From the IMG/VR virus record IMGVR_UViG_3300042504_002519, positions 1-64,000 of that record: a stretch of DNA of 64,000 bases. One strand, given 5' to 3'. The position numbers were made by a program, and so were the translations under genes. Below the pieces are notes generated by a model. The model was not told where the DNA came from and searched no databases. It saw nothing but the letters and a program-made list of their open reading frames with translations. The DNA comes from a virus. Below are positions 2,202 to 24,217 of this stretch, in pieces (within the stretch, counting starts at the first letter, position 1; each line of letters begins with the position of its first letter).

Positions 2202-2881
2202 ACTGGACTCCCACGCTAGTGGGGATACTTGGCGACGTAGGATCCACCCCCACGAATGTGTGGGTCAAGGGCTGTCAGGATCTACCCCCACCGCAGTGGG
2301 GAACGCTAGCTGAGCCAGGGTGAAAAACTCCCACGATGGCGGGTAAGTTCCTGGACGGACTCCCACGGAGTGGGTTGATTTGTGTAGAGACAGACTCCCA
2401 CGGGGTGGGATAAGCGGGAACTATCGGAAAAACTCCCACCGAAGTGGGGAAGAAATACCTGAGCTAGGGCGACAGACTCCCACAATGGTGGGGCTAGTAG
2501 GCCCGGGCAATGGCAGACAGACTCCCACGGGGGTGGGGTGCATGAGTTAACCGCAAATTGACAGACCCCCACTTCGGTGGGGTGCGGGAACTGTCCCTGA
2601 TCGACAGACCCCCACCGGGGTGGGGCTAGCTGGCCTGAGGAAAGGGACAAACCCCCACCGAAATGGGGAGGTGGTTGCCAGGGCCTAGCCCATGTGCCTG
2701 CGGGCGTCGTAAGATCCACTCCCACCGAGTGGGGAGGTGTTTGCGAGAGCCGGGTACTAAGCCGGTAGCTAGGCCTTCTCACGAAAAACCCCCACCCTGG
2801 TGGGATGTGCTTTGCGAGAGCTAGTAAGCCACCAATTCTGCCCAGATCTTCACTAGAAGCACCCCCACCGAAGTGGGATCC
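2202..2881 (-). CRISPR. CRISPR array A (about 15 degenerate type I-E-like repeats; 3 long spacers, then short units)
   Basis: Repeat core CCCCAC-N4-GTGGGG/A-GTNNNTC; periods 73,70,67 then 43,43,44,45,44,38,35,32,43,38,39. Confidence 0.9.
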
Positions 2882-2923
2882 ACTTACCACCAAGTTGTCA
2901 ATGTCCTGGCAGCAGTATAGCAC
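2882..2923 (-). promoter_or_regulatory. Array A leader (extended -10 plus boxA-like motif)
   Basis: GTGCTATACT..CAGGACATTGACAACTTGGTGGTAAGTGG, conserved in all four array leaders. Confidence 0.8.
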
Positions 2924-2947
2924 ATTGCTGGCCAGAGCCGCACAAGC

Positions 2948-3241
2948 AAAACCCCAGCCATGGGGCCGGGGTCTGCGGGGGTGGTGGGTGGAGGGAAGTT
3001 ATATTGCCCAGACGTACCACCCTTTTCCGTCACACCAGTTGGTACCGTGACCAACTAACGTTTTTTTATTGTCAAATATTTCGCAATCAAGGGAACCCAA
3101 TTCCCCACGGACGACGGCAGTACCCTCAAAATTTGAGGGTAGGGGCTTAAGACCCCTGAGGGTTCCAGCAATATGGAGTTCCCGGTTCTGAGTGCTAGTG
3201 ATTTTCATAGCTTTGTCCTCTCTGTAAGTGGTTCAACAATT
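2948..3241. repeat. About 295-bp inverted duplication, copy 1 (copy 2 at 33508-33800)
   Basis: Near-identical reverse complement covering 5' UTR, 69-aa ORF and terminator. Confidence 0.9.
2999..3208 (-). CDS. Small early hypothetical protein (duplicated gene)
   Basis: Own promoter, RBS and terminator; second copy at 33541. Confidence 0.7.
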   Translation of the reverse strand: MKITSTQNRELHIAGTLRGLKPLPSNFEGTAVVRGELGSLDCEIFDNKKTLVGHGTNWCDGKGWYVWAI

Positions 3242-3290
3242 TCAATATACAGGGGGTGTATCGACTTGTCAACACCCCCGGCCAAACAAA

Positions 3291-4109
3291 CTACCCCGCC
3301 ACAACCCATTCCTTCCACGCCAGCGGGCTAGCCTGGTTCAGGATCATGCCCGATACCCTGACAGGCCCCGTCAGATCGAACTCGGCTAGGCCTTTGGTTA
3401 GATGGCGCAGGCTGGCCCGGCCAAGGGACCATGGATCGACCAGGGTGCATTTCACCCCAGCAGCCACCACGATCCCGTCAGGGAACGCCTGGAGTCGCCG
3501 CCATGGCCACATGAGGTATTGCACCAGATCGGGGTTGTCAGCGTCCAGCGTCTCGGCGTAGTCGATGGGGCGCTTCCACCAGGGCACCCAGGACGATGCC
3601 GGCGCCGCATTGAGTTCCAGGAAGTCCGCTAGGGTATCGCCCCACTTCCAGGCCACCAGCTGGCCCATGTGGCTGGGCTTAGGCCCGCTGATCGGCAGGC
3701 CTTTTACCTGGGCCTTGAGCCCGGGCCTATCGCAGAAGTAGGCGGTGACTAGCGCCTTGATCAGGTCGGCCTCGGTTGGGCTGGCCAGGAAGTTGCGGGG
3801 CACCAGGGCAGGGCCGGAACCATCCATCAGGTCCATGATCGCCTGCGGGCTACGGATGGAGGCCTCAGGCAGGCCTGTTACCTGCAGGAATCCTGGCTCG
3901 CCCCAGTTGTTCCACAGCGGCATATCGCCTGGCAATGGCTGGTTTTTCATAGTGACGCTGGCCATAGCCAGCAGCAGGCGTAGGAACGCCTGGCGGGTGA
4001 GGTGGCCTTCGCTGATGTCGGTGTAGGCTTCAGGGCTGGCCAGTAGGTCGGCCAGGCTGGCGGTGCCCTGGGGGGTGGCAATGCAGGGGTAAGTAAAGAT
4101 GTCGGCCAT
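3291..4109 (-). CDS. cas8e: Truncated Cas8e (Cse1/CasA)-like large subunit, 272 aa
   Basis: Probable start MADIFTYPCI with GGAG RBS; Cse1-like motifs SLADLL, AFLRLLLA, FLQV, GDTLADFLELN, PWW, YLMWPWRRL, DPW; about half normal length. Confidence 0.75.
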   Translation of the reverse strand: MADIFTYPCIATPQGTASLADLLASPEAYTDISEGHLTRQAFLRLLLAMASVTMKNQPLPGDMPLWNNWGEPGFLQVTGLPEASIRSPQAIMDLMDGSGPALVPRNFLASPTEADLIKALVTAYFCDRPGLKAQVKGLPISGPKPSHMGQLVAWKWGDTLADFLELNAAPASSWVPWWKRPIDYAETLDADNPDLVQYLMWPWRRLQAFPDGIVVAAGVKCTLVDPWSLGRASLRHLTKGLAEFDLTGPVRVSGMILNQASPLAWKEWVVAG

Positions 4110-4178
4110 GTGGTTCTCCAGATAACGAAAAAGTGTTACTATCCAATTGTAAGCCATTAGTTGGGTTGCGAGCCGCAG

Positions 4179-4823
4179 ATGAATTTCCCACATGATGTTG
4201 TCAGAGATGCCTGGGCCGTCCGCCATGGTGGCCGCACCGAGGTGTCCGTAGGCCAGGACCGCATTGATATCGTTGTTGATGGCGACCAGTACGACACGCT
4301 GGTGGAGGTAAAGCCTGCCCACCAGGTGCGGGAGGCCATCGGCCAGGCCAATAGCTACCAGAGACGCTGGACTCGGCCCAGCAAAAAGCACTTGCTGCTA
4401 TTTCATGAGACTGGCCTACCGGCTAAGTCTACGGTGGAGCGCCTACGGACCCACCAAGCCTCCGGTGAGTTGTCCAGCTTCACATGGGAGATAGTGCCAG
4501 CGGTGCCCCGGCCTAGCTACCACATTGCTGGGGTGCCGATCAGCTTTGAGCGGGCTAAGGCAGATATTTGCGGCCATGTGGCCCGCATCAAGCGCAGTTT
4601 CCAGGATGGCCCTATTGCCGCCAACGATAGGGCTTTCCTGCACTACCTAATTGTCGGCGGCCAACGCCAGGCCCAGGGCGCCCAGCTAGCCTGGGGCGAC
4701 AAGGGTATTGAGCTGCAGGTAGTGCGGTTCGACAACAACGTGTTTGGCTTGTCTGCCCGATCCGCTGCGGTGGACTGGCTCAGACAGGCTAACTACAAAG
4801 CTGTTTACGGAGGATCACGATAA
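4179..4823 (+). CDS. PD-(D/E)xK nuclease with a C-terminal DCL/DUF3223-like domain, first gene of the cas operon
   Basis: E..RIDIV..LVEVK..AIGQANSY motif; stop overlaps the cas6 start (TAATG). Confidence 0.7.
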   Translation: MNFPHDVVRDAWAVRHGGRTEVSVGQDRIDIVVDGDQYDTLVEVKPAHQVREAIGQANSYQRRWTRPSKKHLLLFHETGLPAKSTVERLRTHQASGELSSFTWEIVPAVPRPSYHIAGVPISFERAKADICGHVARIKRSFQDGPIAANDRAFLHYLIVGGQRQAQGAQLAWGDKGIELQVVRFDNNVFGLSARSAAVDWLRQANYKAVYGGSR

Positions 4824-5506
4824 TGCTGTATTTGTCACGTTTTGCCCGGCCAGATGGCCATGGTAGCCTGCACCGCTATGTGATGGCGGGTTTTCCGGAT
4901 GATCTGGGCCCAGACCCCCGCAAGCAAGCTGGGGTGTTGTTTCGGGTTCAAGTCAATCGGGAGCCGGATTTTTTCGCTGCTGAAAATGACAATGAGTTGA
5001 TTGATAAGCGCGAATGCGCTGAAGGCGGATCCATTCTGGTGCAGTCAACCATGAAGCCGAAATGGCCAAAAAGCTATGAAGCTGAAGTGAAGCTGGAATT
5101 TAAGCCTAGCCTGCTAAAGGCGGAAAAGCGCTACCGGTTTCGTTTTGGTCTAAATTCCGTTGCCCAAAGTAACCGAGATGGCCGGTGCCGGCGTTATCCG
5201 GTGCCTGTTAGCCAATGGCTGGCGGCCAGGGAAGAAATGCTGGGCGCTACTTTTGACATTCGCAAAGTGGAGTCCATGGTTCTTTACGACCATGTAAGGC
5301 GAGAGCATTACACTCGTTCATTCCCCATTCATGTGTCGGTGATCGACGGATATTTACGTGTCACTGATCCCATCAAGCTGGCTCAGGCCATCCGCGAGGG
5401 CATTGGCCGGGAGAAGGCCTACGGCTGCGGGCTGCTGTCCTTGCTGCCGGTGGTGGCGGTGACTCCCGCGCCGTCGCCTGCCCTGGTGGGTGTGGCTCAA
5501 ACCTGA
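4823..5506 (+). CDS. cas6e: Type I-E crRNA endoribonuclease Cas6e (Cse3)
   Basis: MLYLSR start, LHRYV..FP, ILVQS, YRFR, G-loop GIGREKAYGCGLL. Confidence 0.93.
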   Translation: MLYLSRFARPDGHGSLHRYVMAGFPDDLGPDPRKQAGVLFRVQVNREPDFFAAENDNELIDKRECAEGGSILVQSTMKPKWPKSYEAEVKLEFKPSLLKAEKRYRFRFGLNSVAQSNRDGRCRRYPVPVSQWLAAREEMLGATFDIRKVESMVLYDHVRREHYTRSFPIHVSVIDGYLRVTDPIKLAQAIREGIGREKAYGCGLLSLLPVVAVTPAPSPALVGVAQT

Positions 5507-5509
5507 GCA

Positions 5510-5573
5510 GTGGCCCCACTCCGGTGGGCGTGGATCGACAACCAAAAAGGCCCCACAGGCGTGGGGGTGGCCA
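5510..5573 (+). CRISPR. Two repeat units inside the cas6-cas7 intergenic region
   Basis: CCCCACTCCGGTGGGCGTGGATC and CCCCACAGGCGTGGGGGTGGCC, period 37. Confidence 0.8.
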
Positions 5574-5602
5574 CCAGGCCCAGTCCTTAAGGGAGGAACC
5601 TT

Positions 5603-6838
5603 ATGTTTATCGAACTGCACCTGATCCATGCCTTGCCGCCCAGCAATGCCAACCGGGACAAGTCCGGGGCACCCAAAAAGATCCAATACGGTGGTAGCTG
5701 GCGGGCCCGGCTCTCCAGCCAGTCCCAGAAGCGGGCCGCCCGGCAGCACTACGAGCAATGGATGGCGGTTGACCGCAAGGCCTTAGCCTTTCGCAGCCGT
5801 CGCCATGACGTTGCCCTGGCTACCCGCCTAGCTTTCGGCGATGACGATGACAACCTGATGGTGGCCCGGTTCCTGCTGGGCTTATTCAACCTCAAGAACG
5901 ACAACCTGATCCCGGCCATGCTGGAGGAGCCCAGCAACTTGCTGTTCCTCTCAGAGCATGAGCTAGACACCATCGCCGCCATTGCCGCCGACTACCCGAT
6001 CTTGTTGCAGGACATGCTGGAGCGGGCCCAGCGTTATCGGGCAGCGTTGGATCCAAAGCCCAAGAAAGCGCCTGAGGCTGAGCATCCATCCGCCAGGGAT
6101 CTGCAAGGTATCCGCAAGGCCCTAGCCCAGCTAGGTCAGCAAGTGCCCGGTAGCGTGGCCCTGTTTGGCCGGATGATGGCCAGCCTGACTGAGGCCAGCG
6201 TCGATGGCTGCACCCAGGTGGCGGATGCCATCTCGGTTAATTCCTTTGGTATCACCAATGTCAAGGGCATGGGCCAAGTGATTGGCGAGCCAGACTTTTT
6301 CACCGCCGAGGATGATGTCGCTCCGATGGATGAAGAGGCTAAGGCTGGGGCGGGCCACCTGGGGGAGCTGCCTATCGTCTCGCCTGTGTACTACCGCTAT
6401 GCCAACCTCAATGTCACTGAACTAGCCTGCTTGGTTGGTGACCCTGGGCTGGCCCAACAGTTTGCCCGGGGATTCTTGACGGCATTCTGCGCTACCCTGC
6501 CCACCGGCTATATCCGCAGCCATGCCCACCTAACCCTGCCTGACTATGTGCAGATTAGCTGTACTGCTGCTCAGCCTTACACCTTGGCACCGGCATTCCA
6601 TGTGTCAATCAATAGCTGCACCACCGACGACGACTTCCTAGCCCAGGGTATCCCGCACCAGGCCGCTGATGCGCTGCGCCAGTACCAGGACCGGCTAAAC
6701 GTCATCTACGGCGACAAGTCGCTGTACAAAGCTGAAGTGACTACCCAGCCAGGCTGGTTCGGCCAGCCCCTGGACGGGGCCATTGATGGGGCCCTGCAAG
6801 TAGCCATGGGTGCTGGCAAGGAGGTGGCCTATGCCTAG
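5603..6838 (+). CDS. cas7e: Type I-E backbone subunit Cas7e (Cse4/CasC)
   Basis: MFIELHLIHALPPSNANRD.SGAPK..YGG..RARLSSQSQKRA, ALFGRM, DFFTA.DD, GAGHLG, YYRYANLN, LPTG. Confidence 0.95.
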   Translation: MFIELHLIHALPPSNANRDKSGAPKKIQYGGSWRARLSSQSQKRAARQHYEQWMAVDRKALAFRSRRHDVALATRLAFGDDDDNLMVARFLLGLFNLKNDNLIPAMLEEPSNLLFLSEHELDTIAAIAADYPILLQDMLERAQRYRAALDPKPKKAPEAEHPSARDLQGIRKALAQLGQQVPGSVALFGRMMASLTEASVDGCTQVADAISVNSFGITNVKGMGQVIGEPDFFTAEDDVAPMDEEAKAGAGHLGELPIVSPVYYRYANLNVTELACLVGDPGLAQQFARGFLTAFCATLPTGYIRSHAHLTLPDYVQISCTAAQPYTLAPAFHVSINSCTTDDDFLAQGIPHQAADALRQYQDRLNVIYGDKSLYKAEVTTQPGWFGQPLDGAIDGALQVAMGAGKEVAYA

Positions 6839-7277
6839 GCTAGTCCTGAAGCTAGCAGGCCCCATGGCTGCCTATGGCACCGGGCCACGGCTGCAGCAAC
6901 GACTGACGGAGGATGCCCCAACTGAGTCGGCGATCCGCGGCATGTTGTGTGCTGCCCTGGGGATACGTCGAGGCCAGTCAGCGCCGGAACTGGACGGGCT
7001 GCAGGTGGAGATAGGCGAGACAAGCCATGGCGGAGTGTTGGAGGACTTCCACACCATCCGCGATGCTATCACCTATGACGGGGCCCCAGGCCGCAATGCC
7101 ATCACCACCCGGCACTACCTGAGCGACTTCAGTTCCACCGTTACCCTGCGGGGTGACTTGCAGCAGATCCGCACCATTGCCAAGGCGCTGGCCCGGCCCA
7201 AGTTCCAGCTATACCTGGGACGCCGTAACTGTGTCCCAACTGGCCCGATCTGGGCTGTTGCCCGGGAGGAAGTTTAG
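6831..7277 (+). CDS. cas5e: Short Cas5e (CasD), 148 aa
   Basis: LVLKLAGPMAAYG, PTESAIRGMLCAALG, DFHT, RHYLSD, LYLGRRNCVP; lacks the usual C-terminal part. Confidence 0.92.
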   Translation: MPRLVLKLAGPMAAYGTGPRLQQRLTEDAPTESAIRGMLCAALGIRRGQSAPELDGLQVEIGETSHGGVLEDFHTIRDAITYDGAPGRNAITTRHYLSDFSSTVTLRGDLQQIRTIAKALARPKFQLYLGRRNCVPTGPIWAVAREEV

Positions 7278-7278
7278 C

Positions 7279-7426
7279 CGGTTCCCCACACTGGTGGGAG
7301 TAGTTCGTGTACTGCTTTAGCTCCCCACTGCGGTGGAGGTGGATCCAATATTTATAACAGGCCCCACCAGCGTGGGAGTGGATCCTATGTCAGTATCCCC
7401 TACTTCCCACCTGGTGGGAGTGTGCC
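7279..7426 (+). CRISPR. Leaderless mini-array of 4 repeats directly after the cas5 stop
   Basis: Hairpin cores at 7284, 7323, 7362, 7405 (periods 39, 39, 43). Confidence 0.85.
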
Positions 7427-7542
7427 AGAAGTTGTGCCACTAATATACCCCTAGCATATTGACAGGCCCGATATACCCCGGCTATATTGGTGACATGCCG
7501 CACCGCTACAGCGGCCATCCACACTACACAAGGATTAACGCT

Positions 7543-8010
7543 ATGAACACCGCCACTATCACCGCCACCCGCCACAATGGTTCTTTCGTCGCCTCCGCCT
7601 GGGAGTGCTGGTACGGAGCCTCTGACCGGGCCTGCCAAGCCACCGCCTGGGCCTGGGGCCTGTATACCGAAGCATTCTTTTCTGAAGCCGCCATGGCTCG
7701 TTACCGCTGGGCTGGCCAGATGATTGCCTGCCTGGGCCTGCTGGCCTACCTGGCTGGCAAGCTGATCCGCTTGTGGCTACAGCCCAGGGTTGATGCCTGG
7801 GTAGATAGCTGCCAAGCCCCTGAGCCCGTCCAGGAGGCCCCAGAGCCAGCCCCGGCACCGGTAGCTAGCCCAGTGCCCCAACCCCAACCCGAGGCCACCC
7901 CGCTGGCCGCCCTGGGTATCCGGGAGTTGCGCAAGCTGGGCACTGCTCGGGGCGTCAAGGGTGCAGCTCGGATGAAAAAGACTGAGCTACTGGCCAGCCT
8001 AGCGGCCTAG
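7543..8010 (+). CDS. Hypothetical protein with TM segment and C-terminal Rho-N-like domain
   Basis: LGIRELRKLGTARGVKGAARMKKTELL; follows the early promoter at 7459-7488. Confidence 0.6.
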   Translation: MNTATITATRHNGSFVASAWECWYGASDRACQATAWAWGLYTEAFFSEAAMARYRWAGQMIACLGLLAYLAGKLIRLWLQPRVDAWVDSCQAPEPVQEAPEPAPAPVASPVPQPQPEATPLAALGIRELRKLGTARGVKGAARMKKTELLASLAA

Positions 8011-8074
8011 ACCACTGCCGCTACCCCACAGCGTAGCGAGGGGACCAACCACTTACACCGAAAGGATCAACGCC

Positions 8075-8305
8075 ATGAACCAGTACCAACAGAAACAGCG
8101 ACAGTTTTATGTTGCCGCCACCCGCATGGGCCATGTCCAGACCGCCCTAGACGCCCTTTGGCGGGCTGCTAGCGAGGCCAGCCTGCTGGCTCCCGACGAG
8201 GTTAACTACCAGCACTTCACCACCGCCCGCATCCTGGCCTTGCTAGATGGGCTTGGCTGGGAGCAGTGTAGAGACGCCTGGCTGGATTCTGGCCTGGGGA
8301 TTTAG
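8075..8305 (+). CDS. Hypothetical protein
   Basis: CCACTTACA/AAGGA upstream, terminator downstream. Confidence 0.6.
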   Translation: MNQYQQKQRQFYVAATRMGHVQTALDALWRAASEASLLAPDEVNYQHFTTARILALLDGLGWEQCRDAWLDSGLGI

Positions 8306-8321
8306 CCCCTAGCCTGCCTGC

Positions 8322-8347
8322 CACCCCTGGCCCTCGCCGGGGGTTTT
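8322..8347 (+). terminator. Rho-independent terminator
   Basis: CCCCTGGC-cctc-GCCGGGGG-TTTT. Confidence 0.65.
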
Positions 8348-8377
8348 GTCTTGGTTGCGCCATTTGGCTAGAGTTGT

Positions 8378-8423
8378 GTGCTATAGTGGTGGCAGGAACC
8401 TTGACAACTTGGTGGTAGGTGAC
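8378..8423 (+). promoter_or_regulatory. Array B leader
   Basis: GTGCTATAGT..CAGGAACCTTGACAACTTGGTGGTAGGTG. Confidence 0.8.
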
Positions 8424-8838
8424 GGTGGACCCACTTCGGTGGGGGTTTCTCCTTCGCTCCCCCCACGGTGGCCACTATTCGGCCTAAGCAAAACACACCC
8501 CACTTCGGTGGGGGTTTCTCGCTTAGTGGCATTGCCCATCTTTAGCGCTGGCCTCGCAAAGCACACCCCACTCCGGTGGGGGTTGATCTACGGCCATCGA
8601 CAACGATCAGGCCATGCCTATCTCGCAAAGCAGGCCCCACCTCGGTGGGGGTTTCTCGGTCTGTGGCGTGTCGTGGTGGATGGTCTGCCTAACGTGACTC
8701 GCAAACACCTCCCCACTCCGGTGGGGGTTATTCGTGGGCCTACCTCTCCATCGTAAACGGCGGTTTCGCCATCCCCACTTCGGTGGGCGTTCTTCCAGCC
8801 CGTACCTCTCCTATACCCCACCCCTGTGGGAGTTTTCG
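8424..8838 (+). CRISPR. CRISPR array B (7 repeats)
   Basis: 36-nt repeat CTCGCAAAGCACACCCCACTCCGGTGGGGGTTTCTC variants; periods 69,68,69,76,62,about 43. Confidence 0.9.
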
Positions 8839-8872
8839 CCCTGGCCTAGCCGGGCTTGTGCGTTTTAGGCGC

Positions 8873-9760
8873 TTAAATATCCACGTAGTCCGAGCTGAAC
8901 ACCCCATTAAAATGCGCGTAGCGATCCATTGTGAACGACGGCTTCGCGTGTCCTAATTGCTGTGCAATGCTCCACCAGTCTGAGCCATGGGCGGCTGCGG
9001 TGACAGCATGGGCATGGCGCAGCCAGTGGGGGCTAGCCTGGGGCTTGCCGATCCTGGCCATGGCCACCTTCACCCATTGCCACGCGATAGGGTAGGGTAC
9101 CGGGAATATTTCGTCCTGGTCCAGCGCATCCTCTGGCCGGGCCTGAACCAGCGCGTCGTAGACCGCCTTAGAGCAGCCGATCTCTCGGGCCTTGTCGCCC
9201 TTGCCGTGGTGGATAGCCAGGAACACCCGCTGGCCGCGTAGGTGCAAGTCACACCACCGCACCGCTAGCGCCTCGCTGGCCCGAACGCCAGTAGCAAATA
9301 GGAAGCGCAGGAATAGCTTAGCCTCCAGGCTGGGTTCCTTGGCAATGGCCCGACGCATCTCGCCCTCGGTTAGGATCCGTTCCGCCATGACTGGCCGGGG
9401 CTTGCCTAGCCGGTAGACGGCGTGGGGGACATTAAATTGCAGGTAACGAATGGAGCTGCCGAACTTCCACAGCGACTTGATAGCCGCCTTGTGCAGGTTG
9501 CAGGTAGCATCGCTCCAGCGCTTCGGGAACGTGGCCTCGTAGTCGATTAGCATGGCCGCTGTGACCATGGCTAGCTGGTGGCAGTCGTGGTGGGCTAGCC
9601 AAGCCCGTAGCCGGGTGATCGCTCGACGGTAGGCTTTCTGGGTGCCAGCACTTCGGGAACGACTGATCCACATCTCGATCAGGTGGTCGTCGCTACTGGC
9701 CTGCTGCAGGGCAAGGCTAGCAGTCTGGGAGGGCTGGGAGGTGACGGTAATAGTATCCAT
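8873..9760 (-). CDS. Tyrosine recombinase/integrase
   Basis: SAM-like N-domain; TGVRASE, HGKGDK, HWLRH, LGH, RY catalytic motifs. Confidence 0.9.
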   Translation of the reverse strand: MDTITVTSQPSQTASLALQQASSDDHLIEMWISRSRSAGTQKAYRRAITRLRAWLAHHDCHQLAMVTAAMLIDYEATFPKRWSDATCNLHKAAIKSLWKFGSSIRYLQFNVPHAVYRLGKPRPVMAERILTEGEMRRAIAKEPSLEAKLFLRFLFATGVRASEALAVRWCDLHLRGQRVFLAIHHGKGDKAREIGCSKAVYDALVQARPEDALDQDEIFPVPYPIAWQWVKVAMARIGKPQASPHWLRHAHAVTAAAHGSDWWSIAQQLGHAKPSFTMDRYAHFNGVFSSDYVDI

Positions 9761-9764
9761 GGCT

Positions 9765-10457: not shown

Positions 10458-10539
10458 AGCTTTATGGTTCTCCGTTGTGCAGTCTTGTATCCGGGCGGAC
10501 CGCCCATGGTGATCGCACCACCACAGGCTTGCTACTGGC

Positions 10540-10932: not shown

Positions 10933-11085
10933 TTGGATCCCTTGGAAAGCAACAATTGGAAAGCAACTCTGAAACCCAACTTACAGCCGGGTGCTACCAT
11001 GCTAGCATGGCCATACTGGATCCGACTTGACAAGTTAGCCAGTATAGTATAGGGGAACACTGACTATATCGGCTGGTGGGGTGGC

Positions 11086-11676
11086 ATGAGCCGGGAAATA
11101 CGGATCCAAACACAGGAACTATTTGCGCGGCTTAGAACCCAACTAAAAGCCGCCGACTATAGGCGTACCCGTGACACCCTGATCCTGATCAACCTGGGCC
11201 TGGTGGAGAAGATCGCTGGCCGCTATGCCCAGGACGGTGTGGAAGTATTCGATGATTTGGTGCAGGTCGGGGTGATCGGCTTGATCAAGGCGGTGGATCG
11301 CTACAACCCAGCTAAGGGAACTGCCTTTAGCAGCTATGCTGTGCCCTATATCCGGGGTGAGATATTGCACCATCGCCGGGACCGGGCCGGGGCACTCAAG
11401 ATACCTCGTAGCTGGTCGGATCAATTTACCCTGCTGCGCCAGCTCTACGATGAACGGGCCAGCCATGCCGCCATGGCCAGCGCTACCCGGATCCCGATAG
11501 ACCAGATCCCGCAGGCCCTCAATGCCTTGCTACGGCCAGACTGCCTAAGCCTGGATGCACCGCTAGCGGCTGGCTTAACCGACTGCTGGGAGCTACCCGA
11601 TAGCAGGCCACCACCAGAGCCAGACTGGGAACCAGAACCAGTGTACGAGGTGAGCTGCTGGGGGCTGGCACAATAA
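11086..11676 (+). CDS. Phage SigB/SigF/SigG-family RNA polymerase sigma factor (region 4 apparently absent)
   Basis: NLGLVEKIA, DDLVQVGVIGLIKAVDRYNP.KG.AFSSYAVPYIRGEILHH.RD. Confidence 0.9.
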   Translation: MSREIRIQTQELFARLRTQLKAADYRRTRDTLILINLGLVEKIAGRYAQDGVEVFDDLVQVGVIGLIKAVDRYNPAKGTAFSSYAVPYIRGEILHHRRDRAGALKIPRSWSDQFTLLRQLYDERASHAAMASATRIPIDQIPQALNALLRPDCLSLDAPLAAGLTDCWELPDSRPPPEPDWEPEPVYEVSCWGLAQ

Positions 11677-11721
11677 AAAACCCGCCAGGTGGCGGGGTGG
11701 ATCCGGGTAGTCCCGGGGTGA

Positions 11722-11928: not shown

Positions 11929-12009
11929 GGTGGTTACTCCTTAAGTAGGGTGGGTAGGTGCCCTGGGTGGCAGTCCCCAGGGCGGGGTGGTGGGGTAAAT
12001 GGCCAGGGC

Positions 12010-12365: not shown

Positions 12366-12388
12366 AAGGCACCCCCACGGTGGTGGGG
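12366..12388 (-). CRISPR. Solitary repeat unit at the 3' end of the leftward replication operon
   Basis: CCCCACCACCGTGGGGGTGCCTT, 11 nt after a stop and upstream of the terminator at about 12317-12342. Confidence 0.6.
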
Positions 12389-12399
12389 TAGCTAGCTAG

Positions 12400-13016: not shown

Positions 13017-13044
13017 GGTCTTGTCTCCTCTGTAAGTGTGTGGT

Positions 13045-14758: not shown

Positions 14759-14811
14759 GGCTCTCTTTGTAAGTGGGTGGTGTTTTGTCAGTGGCTTAGA
14801 GTTGGGTTCTA

Positions 14812-15738: not shown

Positions 15739-15746
15739 GGGTTCTC

Positions 15747-17144: not shown

Positions 17145-17281
17145 GGCTCTTTGTAAGTGGTTGGCGGCTTATGGTTGGGTTCCAATAGACAGCTTATCCC
17201 CAGAGTGACACCCTGTCAATATACTGGGAGTAGATCGGGCAGGGATGCTACGCTATGATCAATTGGCTTAGAGTTGGGTTC

Positions 17282-17980
17282 CTATTCAAAAACCCGTTTT
17301 ACTTTCCTGGCTGCGTCGCCGCAGGCTTCTTGGCATTGGTCATTACCCCATCGATTTTCTTCGTTGATCGACTTCCTGGCTACCGCTTCAGCTAGGCTGA
17401 TGGCCGCTAGCTCCACATCATCGAGCCCGTCCCTGGTATGCACCACGCCCTGGGCTTGCCGGATCTGCTTGGCCGGGGCACCCAGGATCGGCACGTTGAT
17501 AGCGTCAGTACATTTGGCATAGCCAATGCCTTCAACACCGTGTTCCTTGAGGGTATCGGTGAAGTGTCGGCGGTTCAGCTTGCCGTCTAGCCTAGCCTTG
17601 ATCCAGTTGTCGGATCGGCCCTGGCGCTTGTACTTGCTGACGGCATGGGTCAGGGCCTTGTCGGGATCGGCAAGAATGCCAGCGGCCCAGGCCCGGAACT
17701 CCGCACCACGCTGGCCAGGGCATAGCATCAGGATCTGGTAGATGCCCTCTTCAGTGGCTACCGGGGTGTCTCGCTGCCCTCGGCCTGGGAATTTGAAGTT
17801 AACGCAGAAACCGTTAACCTCAGAGTGCTTGTCCTGTATGCGTTTTAGGGTTTCTCGTGTGTGGCTTTTATCAGCCACCCCGAACGCCACCAGTACATCG
17901 TAAACACTGAACCGTCGATCTTCAGTACTGCGGATGGTGGATCCGCTGCAATCGAACTCAAAGACTGTTAAGTTGTTCAT
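17282..17980 (-). CDS. Bro-N/antirepressor-like DNA-binding protein
   Basis: FSVYDVL..FKFPGRGQRDTPVATEEGIYQIL..AEFRAWAA. Confidence 0.7.
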   Translation of the reverse strand: MNNLTVFEFDCSGSTIRSTEDRRFSVYDVLVAFGVADKSHTRETLKRIQDKHSEVNGFCVNFKFPGRGQRDTPVATEEGIYQILMLCPGQRGAEFRAWAAGILADPDKALTHAVSKYKRQGRSDNWIKARLDGKLNRRHFTDTLKEHGVEGIGYAKCTDAINVPILGAPAKQIRQAQGVVHTRDGLDDVELAAISLAEAVARKSINEENRWGNDQCQEACGDAARKVKRVFE

Positions 17981-18047
17981 GGCTTTCCTTGTAAGCAAAT
18001 GGTTTCTCGCTTAGAGCTGGGTTCTTAGTCTTGCAGGACCAGTCCTA

Positions 18048-18644
18048 CTAGATCAGGTCGCGGATCTGCCGTATCACGGATCCAATGTTGAAGTCTGCTT
18101 GGTACGGATCGAACCGAACAAAGGAGCAAGCTAACGCCGACTTGATAGCCTTTTGCCTTTGATGCTCTTTGCGGCTGTCGTAAGCTGTATGCCCGTTTTC
18201 GTCGCATTCGACAGCGATCCTGGCTTCAGCAAGATAGAGATCGATACGGTAGCCAGCGCAGTAGAACTGGCGAATTGGGTTTTGGTCGGAGAAAGCTTCC
18301 GCAATGACTTTGATGGTTTGGACTTCAGCCCGGGGGTAAAATTTATCGCTTGTGATTTCTGCCTGCCAAGGAGCCGCTTTGCACATTTCAAGGATTCTGC
18401 GAATTGTGGCCTCATCTGCTACCGGAGTAGGCCGTTGCCCGCGCCCAGGAAATTGGTGACGTAAAACTGTGGCGGCGAGTTCGGGATGCTTGTCAATCAG
18501 GCGTTTATAGATGTTGCAGGCGTTAGCTGATTTATCGACCACCCCGAACGTTACCAGTACGTCGTAAACGCTGAACCGTCGATCCTTGGTGCTGCGAATG
18601 GTTGATTTGTTGTAGTCATCCCCAAAAATTGTTAGGTCGTCCAT
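18048..18644 (-). CDS. Bro-N-like domain fused to a DUF559/Vsr-like endonuclease
   Basis: Same N-domain as the neighbouring gene; QF..YRIDLY..IAVECDENGH. Confidence 0.75.
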   Translation of the reverse strand: MDDLTIFGDDYNKSTIRSTKDRRFSVYDVLVTFGVVDKSANACNIYKRLIDKHPELAATVLRHQFPGRGQRPTPVADEATIRRILEMCKAAPWQAEITSDKFYPRAEVQTIKVIAEAFSDQNPIRQFYCAGYRIDLYLAEARIAVECDENGHTAYDSRKEHQRQKAIKSALACSFVRFDPYQADFNIGSVIRQIRDLI

Positions 18645-18744
18645 GGCTCTCTTTGTAAGTGGTTGGCGTGTGGTTGATAGCCAGCGGCTTTTAGTTGGGT
18701 TTTAAGGCAAAAACACAAACTTTTAGCCCTGGCCAGTGGAAGGC

Positions 18745-18984
18745 TTAGCGGGAATTGCGCCAGGCCCGCTCGACTTTGGTCAGCGTGGCCAAGTCTGTTT
18801 TGAGCACTGTGACTAACTTTGCCATATCTGCTGGTGTCATTCTGGGAACAGACAGTCCTTGCTCCCATTTTTGGACAGTGGACACGCTAACACCTAATTG
18901 TTGTGCTAGCTCCTCCTGGGTTAGTCCGGAGGCGACTCGTAATGTTTTCATGTTTATCTCCGGTAGAGTCATCCCTATTATCAC
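18745..18984 (-). CDS. XRE-family HTH regulator (Cro/CI-like)
   Basis: LRVASGLTQEELAQQLGVSVSTVQKWEQG. Confidence 0.9.
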   Translation of the reverse strand: MIIGMTLPEINMKTLRVASGLTQEELAQQLGVSVSTVQKWEQGLSVPRMTPADMAKLVTVLKTDLATLTKVERAWRNSR

Positions 18985-19226
18985 CTAGATCCTAGGAATA
19001 GACTAACACGATCCCTTATAGGGAACGGCGAAACTCATAAGGGAAACCTATCAAGAGGATACTAGGAACTACTTGACAGATACCAAGCCCAGGCCCTACT
19101 ATTGAAATATCGACAGCAACCCACAGCCGCTAGCTAATAGCCGGGTTCTGTCAGTCCAGAGAAAAGGGGTCCGTCGCGCCAACGACTCGCCCCTTCGTTA
19201 AATCCACTTACAAAGGATCTTCCCTA

Positions 19227-19556
19227 ATGATACGCCAAATTTCCGTAACCGTCCTGGCCGCTTCCCTTTCCTTGCTTGCCCTGCCCACCATGCCCTCCGC
19301 GACTGCTGTGGCCCTGCGTGGCGACGGCTATTGCCCACCCGAGCAATACAGCTCGGACCCCGACTGTGTCCCTCGCGGATGGCGGGGCACTGGCCGGATC
19401 GGTGACGCTGACGAAGCCTCCAGCCGGGACCGGTTCCCCGAATGCATGAACGGCGTGTGCCGCAACCGTCAGGCCAGCCTGGTAGCCACGTCCGAGGCTG
19501 ACAAGCGCAACCAGTTCCCTGGCGGTCGTCCACGTCAGCCTGAGCACCTAGGCTAG
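19227..19556 (+). CDS. Putative secreted PatX/PatS-like protein (RGTGR motif)
   Basis: Signal-peptide-like N-terminus then VPRGWRGTGR. Confidence 0.55.
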   Translation: MIRQISVTVLAASLSLLALPTMPSATAVALRGDGYCPPEQYSSDPDCVPRGWRGTGRIGDADEASSRDRFPECMNGVCRNRQASLVATSEADKRNQFPGGRPRQPEHLG

Positions 19557-19625
19557 ATCCCTGGGGGCTGGCCCTTGCTGGCCCCAACCTGTTCCGCCAA
19601 CCATCCACACCACTTACAGAGAACC

Positions 19626-19919
19626 ATGGAATACACCAGCACTATCGAACGCTACGAGCCTACAGCACTGGATCTAGTCCAGGAGTCGCCGGTGAGCGAC
19701 GATCCCCAAGTCAAGCTGTACTCTGCCCAAGTTGTTTATCCCTCTGGGGAATGGCTAAACCTAGACAATATCCGGGTTATTGCTGGCCCTGGGGAGGCCT
19801 TCCTGGCTGCTGAGCTGGCTGGGATTTTTGCCGACCAGATCCAGGGTGCCAAGGTCAACACCGTCTGGTGCCCCGCCGACGTCCGGGACCAGGTGTTTGC
19901 TGACGACGACGAGTTTTAG
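19626..19919 (+). CDS. Hypothetical protein
   Basis: CCACTTACAGAGAACC-ATG. Confidence 0.6.
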   Translation: MEYTSTIERYEPTALDLVQESPVSDDPQVKLYSAQVVYPSGEWLNLDNIRVIAGPGEAFLAAELAGIFADQIQGAKVNTVWCPADVRDQVFADDDEF

Positions 19920-19967
19920 TCCACCACGATGGGGTCTTCGGGCCCCTTAGTCTTTAGGAGAACCACC

Positions 19968-20444
19968 ATGGCCGCAACCCTGTTAACCGCCACCGTCGAG
20001 ACCATTGGCAAGCCTAAGACCAGCAAGTACGAAGGCAAGCCCGACTACAGGCCCGTAGCCTTCAAGCTGCCGGATGGCAGTGAGGTATGGCGCAACTACA
20101 ACGTTGGATCGCCTGAACTAGCTTGGCTGCAACGTGGCCAGGCTTACCAAGTAGTCGTTGACGGCGATACTGTGACTCCGGTACAGCCGGAGCAAGCCAC
20201 TAGCCAGCCACAGGCCCAGCCTAGTCAGCCTGCTACTAGCTACCAGCCATCGCCCAGGCTAGACCAGATGGCCAAGGAAGAGAAGGCTGAAATTATCAGC
20301 TACATCACCTCCCTGGCTGGCCTCTACGCCTACGCCTACCAACAGGCCCAGGCTACGTTGACGCCCCATGGTGCACCCCTGGAGGCGATCCAGGCGGCTG
20401 CATCCACCACATTCATCCAGGCCGCAAAGCGCTTTCAACTGTGA
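19968..20444 (+). CDS. Hypothetical protein
   Basis: AGGAG RBS; start MAATLL. Confidence 0.65.
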   Translation: MAATLLTATVETIGKPKTSKYEGKPDYRPVAFKLPDGSEVWRNYNVGSPELAWLQRGQAYQVVVDGDTVTPVQPEQATSQPQAQPSQPATSYQPSPRLDQMAKEEKAEIISYITSLAGLYAYAYQQAQATLTPHGAPLEAIQAAASTTFIQAAKRFQL

Positions 20445-20626
20445 GCGCCACCATCGCCCGGCTGCGCCCCTGCCTGGCCGGGCGGCTATCCATTTTTCTG
20501 CATACACGGGCCCAGTACTTACGCCAGATCATTGCTAGGCACCCTGAGGATGGGGCTGCACAGCACGAACTGGAGCTAGTGCTAGCCCAGATCCGATACC
20601 TACCCTTTATTGAGGAACGACCATGA
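20441..20626 (+). CDS. Hypothetical protein
   Basis: Overlapping start/stop with both neighbours. Confidence 0.5.
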   Translation: MSATIARLRPCLAGRLSIFLHTRAQYLRQIIARHPEDGAAQHELELVLAQIRYLPFIEERP

Positions 20627-20959
20627 ACTTACCCGCTGACCCTACCCGCACCGAGATCTTGGCCTACCTGCTGGCCTACTCAGCCTACTGGCGGGGTGAA
20701 CTAGAGAGCGCTATGGATGCGGCCAATGTGCCGTCGAGCAGCATTAACGCCATCCAGGGCGACTTATCTGCCGCCCTGTTTGCTGAAACGACCATGAACT
20801 TACCCGCTGACCCTACCCGCTCCGAGGTGCTGGCCTACCTGCTGGCCTACTCAGCCTACTGGCGGGGTGAACTAGAGAGCGCTATGGATGCGGCCAATGT
20901 GCCGTCGAGCAGCATTAACGCCATCCAGGGCGACTTATCTGCCGCCCTGTTTGCTGAAA
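20616..20959 (+). repeat. 171-bp near-perfect tandem duplication
   Basis: Units start at 20616 and 20787. Confidence 0.95.
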
Positions 20960-21003
20960 TGGCCAGAGTAAACCAAGCCCGTATGGAGGATGACGGCCTA
21001 TGA
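20623..21003 (+). CDS. Hypothetical protein built from a 57-aa tandem duplication
   Basis: MNLPADPTR... occurs twice. Confidence 0.65.
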   Translation: MNLPADPTRTEILAYLLAYSAYWRGELESAMDAANVPSSSINAIQGDLSAALFAETTMNLPADPTRSEVLAYLLAYSAYWRGELESAMDAANVPSSSINAIQGDLSAALFAEMARVNQARMEDDGL

Positions 21004-21161
21004 AACGACGTAAACCCCTGGCCGACAACGTAGCTGCTGAGCTACGCCGAGAACTACGGCAGCAGCAGGCACAGCAAGGCCAGCAAGGCCAGGAACCCCA
21101 GCAAAGCCAGCAACAGGGCTGGCAGGAACAGATACAGCAACAACTAGACGAGGTGTACTAA
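21000..21161 (+). CDS. Small Gln-rich protein (53 aa; not in ORF track)
   Basis: ATGA and TAATG coupling to both neighbours. Confidence 0.55.
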   Translation: MKRRKPLADNVAAELRRELRQQQAQQGQQGQEPQQSQQQGWQEQIQQQLDEVY

Positions 21162-21349
21162 TGGCAACTTATGTTTTTACCTGGGAGAAGGCCTATGCTA
21201 GCGGAGTGCTAGAGGGCAGCTCGACTGTCCAGATCACCAGTGGGGATATTCGCATGGGCATCACCGCTGCTCAATTGCAGATAGCCCAGCTTCACTCAGT
21301 CTCACCTAATGAAGTCCACATCCGCGATATCCAACGGGTTAGGCTCTAG
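21161..21349 (+). CDS. Hypothetical protein
   Basis: Coupled start; terminator at 21377-21402. Confidence 0.55.
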   Translation: MATYVFTWEKAYASGVLEGSSTVQITSGDIRMGITAAQLQIAQLHSVSPNEVHIRDIQRVRL

Positions 21350-21441
21350 CTAGCGAAGCTTTTTTGCTGCCATCTAAACCCCGGCTATAAGCTGGGGTTT
21401 TTGCTTTGGGCACTATTTAAGTAAGTGCTGGTTGTAACAAA

Positions 21442-22302
21442 ATGTTGACCACGCGACGGCTATCAGATGAAGTCCTCGAAATCCGGATCCGCTACACCGG
21501 GGAGGAAACCTATCACTTTTTGTTGGCCAGCGACATTCACCTGGATAACCCAAAGTGTGATCGCAAGTTATTCTTTTCTCACCTCGACAAAATGAAGGCT
21601 CTCGGTGGTAGGGCCTTATTTTTTGGTGATGTGCTATGCCTGATGCAGGGCAAGCGCGACAAGCGGGGCAGCAAGGCCAGCATTCGCCCCGAGCACCAGG
21701 GCGCCAACTACTTTGACTTGGTATTCAAGGAGTCCGCTGACATTCTGGCACCCTACGGCCAGGAGATCCTAATGATGGGCAACGGCAACCATGAGACAGC
21801 CATCATCAACCACCAGGAGATAGATCCCCTGGCTAATGTGGTACAGCAGCTGCGGGGCCGCCACGGGGCCATCACCGAGCACATGGGCTATCAGGGCTGG
21901 ATCCGGTTTGTGTTTTACAAAGAACGGGGCCGAGGCGTCGAGGCTGTTCGGCGGTGCAACCTGTTCTTTCACCACGGGGCCTGGGGTGGTATTGTCACCA
22001 AGGGCACCATGGGCGGTGGCCGGTATGCCAGCATTGCACCGGACGCGGATATTATCGTCAATGGCCACAATCACGAGCGCAGCATCGTTTCTCACCCTTG
22101 CTACCGGTTGATCGAAACCGGCAAGGTGCGGGTGACGCCCCGATACCACGTGCAGTCTGGCACCTACAAGGAGGAGTTCGCTGGTAGCAACGGCTGGGCG
22201 GTGGAGCGGATCGTCATGCCGAAATCTCTAGGCGGCGTCTGGCTGAGGCTGACTCCCACTAAGTCCGCTGGCGTTGTGGTTTCACTGGAACCGGCTAGCT
22301 GA
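21442..22302 (+). CDS. Calcineurin-like metallophosphoesterase
   Basis: SDIH, GD, GNHE, HHG, GHNH motifs. Confidence 0.88.
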   Translation: MLTTRRLSDEVLEIRIRYTGEETYHFLLASDIHLDNPKCDRKLFFSHLDKMKALGGRALFFGDVLCLMQGKRDKRGSKASIRPEHQGANYFDLVFKESADILAPYGQEILMMGNGNHETAIINHQEIDPLANVVQQLRGRHGAITEHMGYQGWIRFVFYKERGRGVEAVRRCNLFFHHGAWGGIVTKGTMGGGRYASIAPDADIIVNGHNHERSIVSHPCYRLIETGKVRVTPRYHVQSGTYKEEFAGSNGWAVERIVMPKSLGGVWLRLTPTKSAGVVVSLEPAS

Positions 22303-22314
22303 AATCGGTTAACT

Positions 22315-22356
22315 GTGCTATAGTAAAGGACAGGAACCTTGAAAATTTGGTGGTAA
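22315..22356 (+). promoter_or_regulatory. Array C leader
   Basis: GTGCTATAGT..CAGGAACCTTGAAAATTTGGTGGTAAG. Confidence 0.8.
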
Positions 22357-22863
22357 GTCGACCCACTTTGGTGGGAGTTTTTCAAGGTCTATCGTCAGTC
22401 ACCCCTGCTACCGGCTATACTGGCCTGGATCCCACTTCGGTGGGGGTTTTTCGCACTCAGTCGGTAGCCACTCGCGGCCAGCGCCAAAGCCTACCCCACC
22501 CCAGTGGGGGTTTATCTGGGAGTTTTTCGCCACCCCTGCTACCGGATGATCGAAACCACGCTGGCCTGGATCCCACCCTGGTGGGCGTTTTTCGCTCGAT
22601 AAGGGATCCCCATTTTGGTGGGGGTGTATCCGAAGACTGGCAACGATATGGCCCCACTTCGGTGGGAGTGGTTCTTTCCCCGTGGTTAGCCCCGCGCTGG
22701 TGGGGGTGGCTCTCGCTTTGTGCCCGCCCCACCCTGGTGGGAGTTCGTCCCAACTCTGGTTGTACCCCATCCTGGTGGGGGTTTATCTTGACTATGGCGA
22801 CTCCCCACTGCTGTGGGAGTGTGTCAATCTGCAGTTCGCCCCCCACTCTGGTGGGAGTAAAAC
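22357..22863 (+). CRISPR. CRISPR array C (11 repeats plus one partial)
   Basis: Three long units then periods 37,44,38,37,38,38,38; terminator at 22915-22939. Confidence 0.9.
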
Positions 22864-22961
22864 CCAATTGTAAGCAAATTGCGGTAGACTGGATTTGTTA
22901 GATGCACCACTCCGACCCCGGCCACGGCTGGGGTTTTTTGTTGCCTGGGCATTCTGGATCC

Positions 22962-23585
22962 ATGGCAACCAAGAAACCCACACCAAAGCTACGATCCAAG
23001 CATGCGCCCAAGCCAGCACCTGGTGCTAGGCGGGGCAACCGGCAGGTGGTAAAAACGTCCGGCCAGCCTGCTACGCCAGCCTGCAAGGAGCGGGCTTTTG
23101 AGCTGTACTGCGAGCTGGGGCCTCAATGGGCTGAAATATCCAGGCGACTGAAGGGCGAAGGCTTTAACCGCTGTGGCAATACCACGATCAGCGGCTGGGC
23201 CAAAGCAGGCGACTGGCACGCCAGAAAGCTGGCTTTGTCGGAGTCACCAGGCGAAGCGGCAAAGGTGCCCCACAAGGCCAAAGTAGCACCGCCCCCACCG
23301 CCTGCTACGGACATAGGCAGCTACCGCACCAAAAAGACCAACCTGGAGCACGTCAGGACGGCGATTGAGCAGGTGGTGCAGTCGATCTGCGACGCACGGG
23401 CCACCAGCGACCTGCGGGCCATTGGCAGCTTGGCTACGGCGTTGGTAAAGCTGATTGAGTTGGAAGGCAAATTGAGCCCCGCCACGGCATCCGAGCTAGC
23501 AGCCAGGGCCGTAGATCTGGGCCTGGATCCAGAGCAATTTATGGCCGCATTGGCGGAGCAATGGCGGATCGCCAAGGCTGGCTAG
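22962..23585 (+). CDS. Probable terminase small subunit (HTH, DUF1804-like)
   Basis: KERAFELY..EISRRL..TISGWAKAGDW..K; helical C-terminus; late promoter motif upstream. Confidence 0.55.
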   Translation: MATKKPTPKLRSKHAPKPAPGARRGNRQVVKTSGQPATPACKERAFELYCELGPQWAEISRRLKGEGFNRCGNTTISGWAKAGDWHARKLALSESPGEAAKVPHKAKVAPPPPPATDIGSYRTKKTNLEHVRTAIEQVVQSICDARATSDLRAIGSLATALVKLIELEGKLSPATASELAARAVDLGLDPEQFMAALAEQWRIAKAG

Positions 23586-24217
23586 AACCCCCACCGTGGT
23601 GGGGATAGCCTAGCAAGTGAACAACGCCCACAGGGGTGGGGATGGTTTGACGAGGGAGAGACGCCCACGGAGGTGGGGCTGCGTCTTGCAGGCAGGATCA
23701 ACGCCCACCAAAGTGGGGCTGGCTGCAAGGACGAGAGACCCCCACGGTGGTGGGATGTGATGCAGTTCTAGGAAGTACTCCCACCGAAGTGGGGAGGTGT
23801 TTGCGAGGGAGCTATCCACCGCCGCTAGGGTTTCCTTAGCGAGAAACCCCCACCGAAGTGGGGAGGTGTTTGCGAGTTGCCTAGCAGCTCCCCCAGGTTG
23901 GCCTGCTCGAGGAACCCCCACCGAAGTGGGGTGTGCTTGCGAGATGGCTAGGGTGATGGCACCCGACCTAGTAAGGCCAGAGAAACCCCCACCGGAGTGG
24001 GGTGTGCTTTGCGAGGGCCCAGCTGGATACCGTGGCATCGGAGCTATCCACCGAGAAACCCCCACCGGAGTGGGGTGTGCTTTGCGAGGACCGCCAAGCA
24101 ACTTTAAGCAGGTGAAACAAAATGAGGAGAAACCCCCACCGAAGTGGGGAGGTGGTTGCGAGACACGGCGCTGGCCGATAGCCAAAACCACGAAAAACCC
24201 CCACCGGAGTAGGATCC
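23582..24217 (-). CRISPR. CRISPR array D (12 repeats; 6 long spacers, then short units)
   Basis: Two identical 36-nt repeats at 23980 and 24053; periods 65,74,73,71,68,69 then 39,37,40,37,37. Confidence 0.95.

Follow-up and report, generated by a model that had tools for sequence, protein, structure and literature searches.

The first 64 kb of a 77.5-kb viral contig (IMG/VR record IMGVR_UViG_3300042504_002519, positions 1 to 64,000, hereafter the window) carry four CRISPR arrays that are built in two tiers. Ordinary-length units next to the leader are followed by much shorter units, and units of this short kind also form seven clusters outside the arrays, giving about 34 per genome in 11 places. 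The stems of these units are under selection at the RNA level, the ends of their handles are invariant between orthologous units, and the sequences that separate them fall into discrete length classes with a six-base substitution period. The same phage encodes a reduced set of type I-E Cas proteins. We consider it an even bet that the short units are functional, vertically inherited genes for mini CRISPR RNAs (mini-crRNAs) of the phage's own reduced type I-E system.

Two tiers in each array

In the window, the motif CCCCAC-N4-GTGGGG was counted 16 times, where shuffled sequence would give 0.03. The strand on which the hairpin precedes xGTNNNTC was taken as the transcribed one; 42 of the 53 stem-only hairpins in the 77.5-kb genome have GTNNNTC on exactly one side, for which the chance level is estimated at <1%. 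All four arrays begin at a conserved leader junction (..GGTGACGGTGGA), followed by three to six leader-proximal units with a 36-nucleotide (nt) repeat, CTCGCAAA(C/G)CAC(C/A)(T/C)C-CCCAC-N4-GTGGG-GGTTTCTC, and periods of 62-77 nt. Next come units whose period drops to 31-45 nt. These retain just the hairpin (CCCAC-N3-6-GTGGG) and the xGTNNNTC handle (GU-NNN-UC in RNA), and the 14-nt 5' flank of the repeat is unrecognisable in them (Hamming distance to the consensus of 7-12/13, where random sequence is estimated to give ~9.75).

This phage (G000) was compared with three sister genomes (G001, G002 and G003) and with nine further metagenome loci (L-series), the Cas7e of the relatives being 83-98% identical; the metagenome relatives come from short contigs. 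The layout of arrays and short units is the same in the three sister phages and the nine loci, and near-identical DNA is present in many lake-water metagenomes, 21 DNA runs covering over half of a 10-kb stretch used as query. The two-tier architecture of the four arrays, with its periods, hairpin and handle, is confirmed as a preliminary description of this DNA had given it. That description also listed outlying short periods of 32, 35 and 40 nt. Those of 35 and 40 nt were found again and 32 nt was wrong, the actual list being 31, 35, 36, 40 and 41 nt. Short units do stand in all four arrays, as it stated, but they are not confined to them, given the seven further clusters.

The leader of array A contains an extended -10 element (TGCTATACT) upstream of the leader junction, and a terminator-like hairpin (2950-2967) lies upstream of this leader. 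Its short tier has 11 linkers of 10-23 nt, mostly 21-23, several of which are conserved in sister phages. In array B, the 21-nt linker CAGCCCGTACCT(C/A)TCCTATAC is conserved in at least four phages and varies at position 13; in array D, three short linkers are 88-100% identical in G003. The G001 homologue of array C consists of a leader followed by short units only. This points to a promoter of their own for short units.

The two tiers differ in how they are shared between relatives. A counterpart of at least 80% identity was found for 19 of 34 short linkers and for 2 of 19 long spacers, the latter figure being what the usual turnover at the leader end of an array would give. Few long spacers match sister phages, all of them imperfectly, and the protospacers are too few to derive a protospacer adjacent motif (PAM). 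One long spacer of array C (22517-22557) matches the gene upstream of its own array (22093-22119) at 25/27 positions, and at 26/27 in sister phages; the 5' part of this self-matching "spacer" is a duplicated 3' arm plus handle (TGGGAGTTTTTC). The earlier proposal that long guides serve inter-phage conflict fits, if thinly, with the 2/19 sharing, the few imperfect matches to sisters and the imperfect self-match.

Selection on stem, handle and linker

Among 235 non-redundant units, variant stem positions comprise 38 G·U wobbles and two compensatory U-A pairs, compared with 14 mismatches, of which two would be wobbles on the opposite strand. Restricted to the short and long tiers, the figures are 37 G·U wobbles, two compensatory U-A pairs and six mismatches, one of the six being an opposite-strand wobble. 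Transitions are expected to strike both arms of a stem equally. The wobble asymmetry on the assigned strand therefore indicates that selection acts on the transcribed RNA hairpin. In short units, 99% of stem positions are paired. Folding of multi-unit RNA was uninformative, since the arms of neighbouring units pair with each other.

The handle shows an equally sharp pattern. Between orthologous units, none of 88 sites in its GU and UC ends has changed, while its three central bases change at 0.38 per site, close to the 0.36 per site of the loops. Decay, or homogenisation through copying, cannot account for this pattern, in which the arms and the handle ends are retained and the 4-nt loop between the arms is randomised. 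The preference for selection over decay voiced in the preliminary description is thereby supported, indirectly, by the stem pairing, the invariant GU..UC and the variability of loops and handle centre. In addition, because the handle is conserved and Cas6e cutting alone needs none, binding of the handle by Cas5e is indicated; the role of the handle is discussed in PMC10651486.

Linkers, defined as the sequence from the end of GTNNNTC to the next CCCAC, were reduced to 52 sequence-independent families from the four genomes and nine loci. By length, 37 families fall at 14-18 nt, 10 at 21-22 nt and 4 at 26-27 nt; a single family lies apart, at 10 nt, and no length of 19-20 or 23-25 nt occurs among the 52. 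Over the same set, the periods of the short units are 36-40, 43-44 or 48-49 nt. In one case, an orthologous linker measures 23 nt in one phage and 27 nt in another, jumping the empty 24-25-nt interval. Subtracting the eighth handle base leaves classes of ~14-16, 20-21 and 25-26 nt, which are in register with 32 nt shortened by 18, 12 and 6. Lengths about 6 nt apart and discrete across relatives had thus been rightly anticipated; the two classes first reported became three with the sister phages included.

Substitutions were followed in 16 families of orthologous short linkers (49 changes over 280 sites). Changes peak at positions 1, 7, 13 and 19 after GTNNNTC, with 19/49 changes on 53/280 sites; column shuffling within families gives p = 0.0006 for this register and p = 0.0017 for any register. 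In type I-E Cascade, these positions correspond to handle position -1 and spacer positions 6, 12 and 18, whose bases are flipped by the Cas7 thumbs and stay unpaired with the target. Codon periodicity is not the cause, as positions 4, 10 and 16 show no such rise. Read from the linker alignments, the six-base period would imply an RNA seated on a Cas7 backbone and counted from the handle. The remaining linker bases would be under base-specific constraint, for which pairing to something is most simply the cause. Length classes about 6 nt apart, together with a 6-nt substitution period in the Cascade register, lend indirect support to the link with Cas7 drawn in the preliminary description.

A reduced effector and the role of the short units

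The positions of the cas genes are given in Table 1. A 272-residue (aa) protein is roughly half a Cas8e, as judged from its family profile and from the match of its model to Cse1 structures. The family profile matches Thermus thermophilus CasA/Cse1 (E 2e-8) and spans residues 6-218 of the chain of ~500, that is, the N-terminal part. The AlphaFold2 model (predicted local distance difference test, pLDDT, 89) matches Cse1 structures in Foldseek with E 1e-10 and a template modelling (TM) score of 0.70 by query length, or 0.44 by target length, being just over half as long as solved Cse1. The C-terminal helical bundle appears, from length, to be missing. In the 77.5-kb genome, Cas11 (Cse2, PF09485) gave no match, while a control genome was positive. 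Neither the Cas3 core nor Cas1 is present in G000, in G001 or in G002, a genome with terminal repeats; no separate search was made for Cas2. The gene that opens the cas operon codes for a 214-aa protein for which only homologues of 79-95% identity were found. Its invariant D33, D36 and E49-V50-K51 resemble a PD-(D/E)xK site, a possible hint of a nuclease, and its AlphaFold2 model failed, with a pLDDT of 39.

Table 1. Positions of arrays, short-unit clusters and cas genes (numbering of the window, continued into the contig for the last two rows)
Feature	Position	Strand	Details
Two units after ATPase-like gene	1028..1110	+	3' arm plus handle duplicated (GTGGGGGTGTGTC x2)
Array A	2877 to 2202	-	periods 73, 71, 66, then 43, 43, 44, 45, 44, 39, 35, 31, 43, 36, 41 nt
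Array A, leader and long tier	2646..2950	-	hairpins 2877, 2804, 2733; 36-nt repeats, 31-37-nt spacers
Array A, short tier	2202..2667	-	12 hairpin-handle units, plus terminal unit with degenerate handle
Half-size Cas8e, 272 aa	3291..4109	-	divergent from cas operon
Clade-specific 214-aa protein	4179..4823	+	first gene of cas operon
cas6e	4823..5506	+	PF08798 E 1e-26; PADLOC Cas6e E 5e-28
Three-unit intercistronic cluster, cas6e-cas7e	5477..5573	+	overlaps end of cas6e
cas7e	5603..6838	+	PF09344 E 2e-66; TIGR01869
Short cas5e, 155 aa	6810..7277	+	TIGR01868 E 4e-31; PADLOC Cas5e E 1e-40
Four-unit cluster directly 3' of cas5e	7285..7427	+	
Array B	8430..8838	+	periods 69, 68, 69, 76, 62, then 43 nt; 5 long units, one 21-nt-linker unit, terminal degenerate unit
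Solitary unit after ssb	12366..12387	-	followed by GTGCC-TTCG-GGCAC hairpin; conserved in G001-G003
Array C	22362..22863	+	periods 69, 64, 77, then 37, 44, 38, 37, 38, 38, 38 nt
Array C, long tier	22362..22571	+	3 units
Array C, short tier	22572..22863	+	8 units, linkers 15-16 and 22 nt
Array D	24213 to 23582	-	periods 65, 74, 73, 71, 68, 69, then 39, 37, 40, 37, 37 nt
Array D, short tier	23582..23793	-	6 units, linkers 15-18 nt
Array D, long tier and leader junction	23794..24234	-	6 units
Two-unit cluster, structural-gene half	32870..32930	-	3 units in G001-G003
Cluster beyond the window	67742-67913	-	
Cluster beyond the window	75950-76031	+	

We infer from these patterns how mini-crRNAs would be processed, assembled and used. 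Array units would be transcribed from the leader promoter, and the other units as sense-strand parts of operons. Cas6e would cut at the 3' base of the CCCAC/GTGGG hairpin, and the product would carry a 5' handle GU-NNN-UC(N), a guide of ~13-16, 19-21 or 25-26 nt and a 3' hairpin. The handle would be held by Cas5e and the hairpin retained by Cas6e, with a whole number of Cas7e subunits filling the space between them (~3, 4 or 5, compared with 6 on a 32-nt guide) and the half Cas8e completing the complex. Without Cas11 or a Cas11-like half of Cas8e, the length of the backbone would not be fixed, so that very different guide lengths could be accommodated. Such short guides would most likely act by binding, for repression or marking, and not by full R-loop cleavage; conserved targets would belong to the host or to other elements and not to the phage itself. 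A more far-reaching version is possible, and we hold it tentatively, as somewhat improbable: graded Cascades with 3, 4 or 5 Cas7e and without Cas11 or Cas3 would load ~34-50 hard-wired guides of 13-26 nt and bind conserved host or rival sequences, forming an RNA-guided regulon served by the smallest known type I effector.

Several points weigh against mini-crRNAs. Positions 8 and 14 of the linkers are also somewhat raised, so that the register is not clean, and the periodicity sample consists of 16 families and 49 changes in related sequences. Since the families were defined by linker similarity, the linker rate is biased downwards relative to that of the loops. The 36-37-nt period equals the length of the 36-nt repeat, so that repeats without spacers, frozen as relics, could be the origin of the main length class. 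Tandem duplication also occurs, L028 and L030 having three identical 37-nt tandem copies each; equal periods are therefore partly inherited. The RNA-library data that bear on processing are assembled contigs from three metatranscriptome runs, covering parts of the locus. Contig ends at 7269/7270 say nothing about transcription or processing, as they coincide with repeat-induced assembly breaks that are also present in a DNA run. Lastly, no target for the short guides was found in this genome or in the three sister genomes, matches staying at the level of shuffled guides. The tests agreeing in this were longest exact matches, seed patterns that leave each sixth base free, in either of two registers, and a comparison of all 92 guides with the four genomes. 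A scan of IMG/VR with two conserved 21-22-nt guides returned three unrelated hairpin-less contigs, judged to be at about chance level.

The proposal that short guides mediate CRISPR-based transcriptional repression (CRISPRi) of phage promoters is not supported, guide matches in the phage genomes being no better than in the shuffled control. Guides of crRNA-like regulatory RNAs (Cracr or crlRNA) would be expected to show PAM-proximal complementarity of at least 9-11 nt to a cas or toxin promoter; here, neither the phage genomes nor the array leaders gave an excess of matches. A "terminal guide" of array C, CCAATTGTAAGC, with a 12-nt match to the cas promoter (4143-4154), was rejected on the ground that the motif recurs upstream of many genes. 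This motif, AACCCAACTNTAAGCC, is found at 4143-4154, 22864-22875, 14805, 17178, 17277 and 56283, and in the rest of the genome at 66042 and 67741. It lies ~30-60 nt upstream of gene starts where checked, stands also directly after terminal hairpin units and is conserved in sister phages; it is probably a phage-specific promoter or operator, and the phage has a gene for a sigma-70-family protein. The region upstream of array B is, in each of the four genomes, matched best by one and the same guide family, GCCAG..GG.TG.AGGC (32891-32930); 1-2 pairing positions are mismatched (8318-8333 here, 18089 in G001 and homologous sites in G002 and G003). For the G003 guide against the G001 site, both mismatches are at positions 6 and 12. 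Because the site is not the same from genome to genome and the motif is similar to over-represented GGCCAG words, we take this match as a lead only, which could reflect autoregulation or composition-driven chance.

The missing targets bear on the idea that the short units are non-guiding sponges or decoys, which would trap Cas6e, Cas5e and Cas7e of the host, of a rival sister phage or of the phage itself in sterile mini-complexes, the linker being irrelevant. We judge this unlikely. It would account for the failure to find targets in this genome, in the three sisters or, for two guides, in IMG/VR, for the many copies whose number shifts by tandem duplication, and for the very short guides. The CCCAC/GTGGG stem is moreover common to other type I-E repeats (the 29-nt repeats of L037, L039 and L056), and both RNA anti-CRISPRs (Racr) and Cracr RNAs compete for Cas proteins. 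However, irrelevant linkers should evolve like loops, and instead they show fewer changes and a 6-nt period. The cognate proteins are encoded by the phage and the units are co-transcribed with its own long guides, so decoys would poison its own system. Racr needs no 5' handle, yet here the handle is invariant between orthologous units. Finally, a scan of species-representative genomes with the repeat pattern gave four single matches and no host array that has this repeat.

The clusters outside the arrays lend themselves to another explanation. All seven are on the sense strand of the flanking genes. The cas6e-cas7e cluster stops just 5' of a Shine-Dalgarno-like AAGGGAGG that precedes cas7e, and it is kept in G001, G002 and L041, while the cluster after cas5e varies from 3 to 7 copies in sister phages. 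The hairpins could serve as punctuation: the phage Cas6e would cut read-through or polycistronic RNAs at them, separating cistrons such as cas6e and cas7e, capping the upstream RNA with a protein-bound hairpin and leaving 5'-OH ends downstream, the released small RNAs being by-products. The intergenic, sense-strand position of every cluster, including those between cas6e and cas7e and after cas5e, speaks for this, as do the terminal units followed by AACCCAACTNTAAGCC or by the ribosome-binding site of the next gene, and the arrays that end in the same kind of cluster. On the other hand, one hairpin would suffice for such a role, yet 3 to 12 stand in tandem, and the invariant GU..UC, the discrete lengths and the 6-nt substitution period are all left unexplained. 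As a full account, punctuation is distinctly unlikely; it may well coexist with mini-crRNAs.

Two further features of the clusters were observed. Two clusters close with a unit that ends in AGTGTGCC and is followed by AGA(A/G)GTTGTGCCA(C/G)TAAT (7406-7440 and 1089-1125), a conserved sequence ahead of the next gene and possibly a promoter or operator. In places, partial duplication has affected the 3' stem arm plus handle alone (1037-1063, with GTGGGGGTGTGTC twice; G002 ~480-529; L039 ~990-1021), which suggests replication slippage at short units.

It is very improbable that the short units are neutral relics, that is, old trailer-end units, young or homogenised, that lost their spacers by inter-repeat deletion and spread by slippage: intermediates with a 5' repeat flank and a truncated spacer do exist (G001 6670, G003 13917, L033 3142, L040 3520), and the distal array position, vertical inheritance and a 36-37-nt period equal to the repeat length fit, but stems remain 99% paired, with changes biased towards G·U, next to randomised loops, handle centres and, mostly, linkers, homogenisation cannot retain both arms while skipping a 4-nt loop, lengths are discrete, and short units occupy seven non-array places and one leader-bearing array without long units. 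Each rival explains part of the data; none accounts jointly for the invariant handle, the discrete lengths and the 6-nt period.

If mini-RNAs are loaded as we propose, the type I backbone would be a modular ruler used at several lengths within one genome, and a Cascade without Cas11 and with half a Cas8e would work with guides of ~13-16 nt. This would bear on the evolution of multisubunit effectors from simpler ones, a question raised in PMC5159557, and would give phages one more strategy besides those of Racr and Cracr RNAs. A very compact DNA-binding scaffold, open to multiplexing, is also suggested. Were the units merely decoys or processing sites, they would still be a large and unusual case of repeat-derived RNA elements across phage operons.

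Relatives and known systems

The phage encodes integrases, ssb, dnaN, a sigma factor (sigma-70 family, 11086-11676), a methylase and tail-like genes. Among cellular Cas7e proteins the nearest are cyanobacterial, with ~35% identity, which is too weak to name a host. The cyanobacterial HIP1 octamer GCGATCGC is absent from the whole genome. The genome is strongly enriched in TGGATCCA (28 copies), GCTAGC (97) and TGGCCA (110). At 20616-20959, a 171-bp unit is present in two tandem copies, 97% identical, over a predicted gene (20623-21003). Rfam and tRNA scans found nothing.

More distant Cas7e relatives also exist, at 37-49% and 79% identity. Two distant loci, L037 and L039, have ordinary 29-nt type I-E repeats (GTCTTCCCCACATGCGTGGGGGTGAGTCG) with periods mostly of 62-64 nt. 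In L039 the arrays lie on both sides of the cas genes, in L037 on the one side seen; L039 has a single 38-nt short unit, at the leader-proximal end. Because the arrays of both loci have these ordinary repeats, the expansion of short units appears particular to the present clade, though the L037 and L039 contigs are short.

Like canonical type I-E systems, the phage has Cas6e, Cas7e, Cas5e and a Cas8e fold, and a C-rich stem of 5-6 bp followed by a 7-8-nt handle. It differs from them in that searches for Cas11, Cas3 and Cas1 came out negative, truncated forms of Cas8e and Cas5e are present, the repeat is 36 nt long with a 14-nt 5' flank, and guides range from 13 to ~40 nt. CreA/CreR and the crlRNA mini-arrays, a subject of Shmakov et al. 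in 2023, reportedly use hard-wired, non-acquired guides with degenerate repeats beside cas genes and partial pairing; they are said to have one guide per locus and a known target in the same locus. Here, by contrast, the guides number in the dozens, and a match within the locus was not found for them.

Racr RNAs are usually solitary repeat mimics unlinked to cas genes; they work without a 5' handle and give complexes without Cas5 and Cas8 (Camara-Wilpert et al. 2023, PMC10651486). The present units are likewise repeat mimics of a phage, and in the case of Racr, Cas6 binds and cuts the RNA and Cas7 is loaded onto it. Unlike Racr, the units stand in tandem, every predicted processed RNA has a conserved handle, and cas genes are present.

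The Cracr arrays come closer. They have 2-3 units with 17-24-nt spacers, use host Cas proteins, give Csy complexes with four instead of six Cas7 subunits on their short spacers, and match host cas or creT promoters (Liu et al., 10.1101/2024.10.29.618823). Both systems stack phage-borne, repeat-like units of hairpin and handle in arrays, with spacers below canonical length. Here, however, ~34 units are spread over 11 places, most guides measure 13-16 nt and no target was found in phage genomes; the phage has its own Cas6e, Cas7e, Cas5e and half Cas8e, and the units trail ordinary arrays or sit in operons.

In E. coli, shortening the crRNA yields Cascades with a reduced number of Cas7 subunits, and activity persists with spacers as short as 14 nt, in priming (Kuznedelov et al. 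2016, PMC5159557). That system is also of type I-E, and guide length would set the number of Cas7 subunits in both. It is a laboratory construct within a complete Cas8e-Cas11-Cas3 system, whereas the units described here are natural and conserved, and stand without Cas11 or Cas3. Overall, shortened guides and complexes with fewer Cas7 subunits are already known from engineered E. coli Cascade and from Cracr; what is distinctive here is the number of units, a shortest guide class of 13-16 nt, a reduced effector of the phage's own, and the placement of the units behind arrays and in operons.

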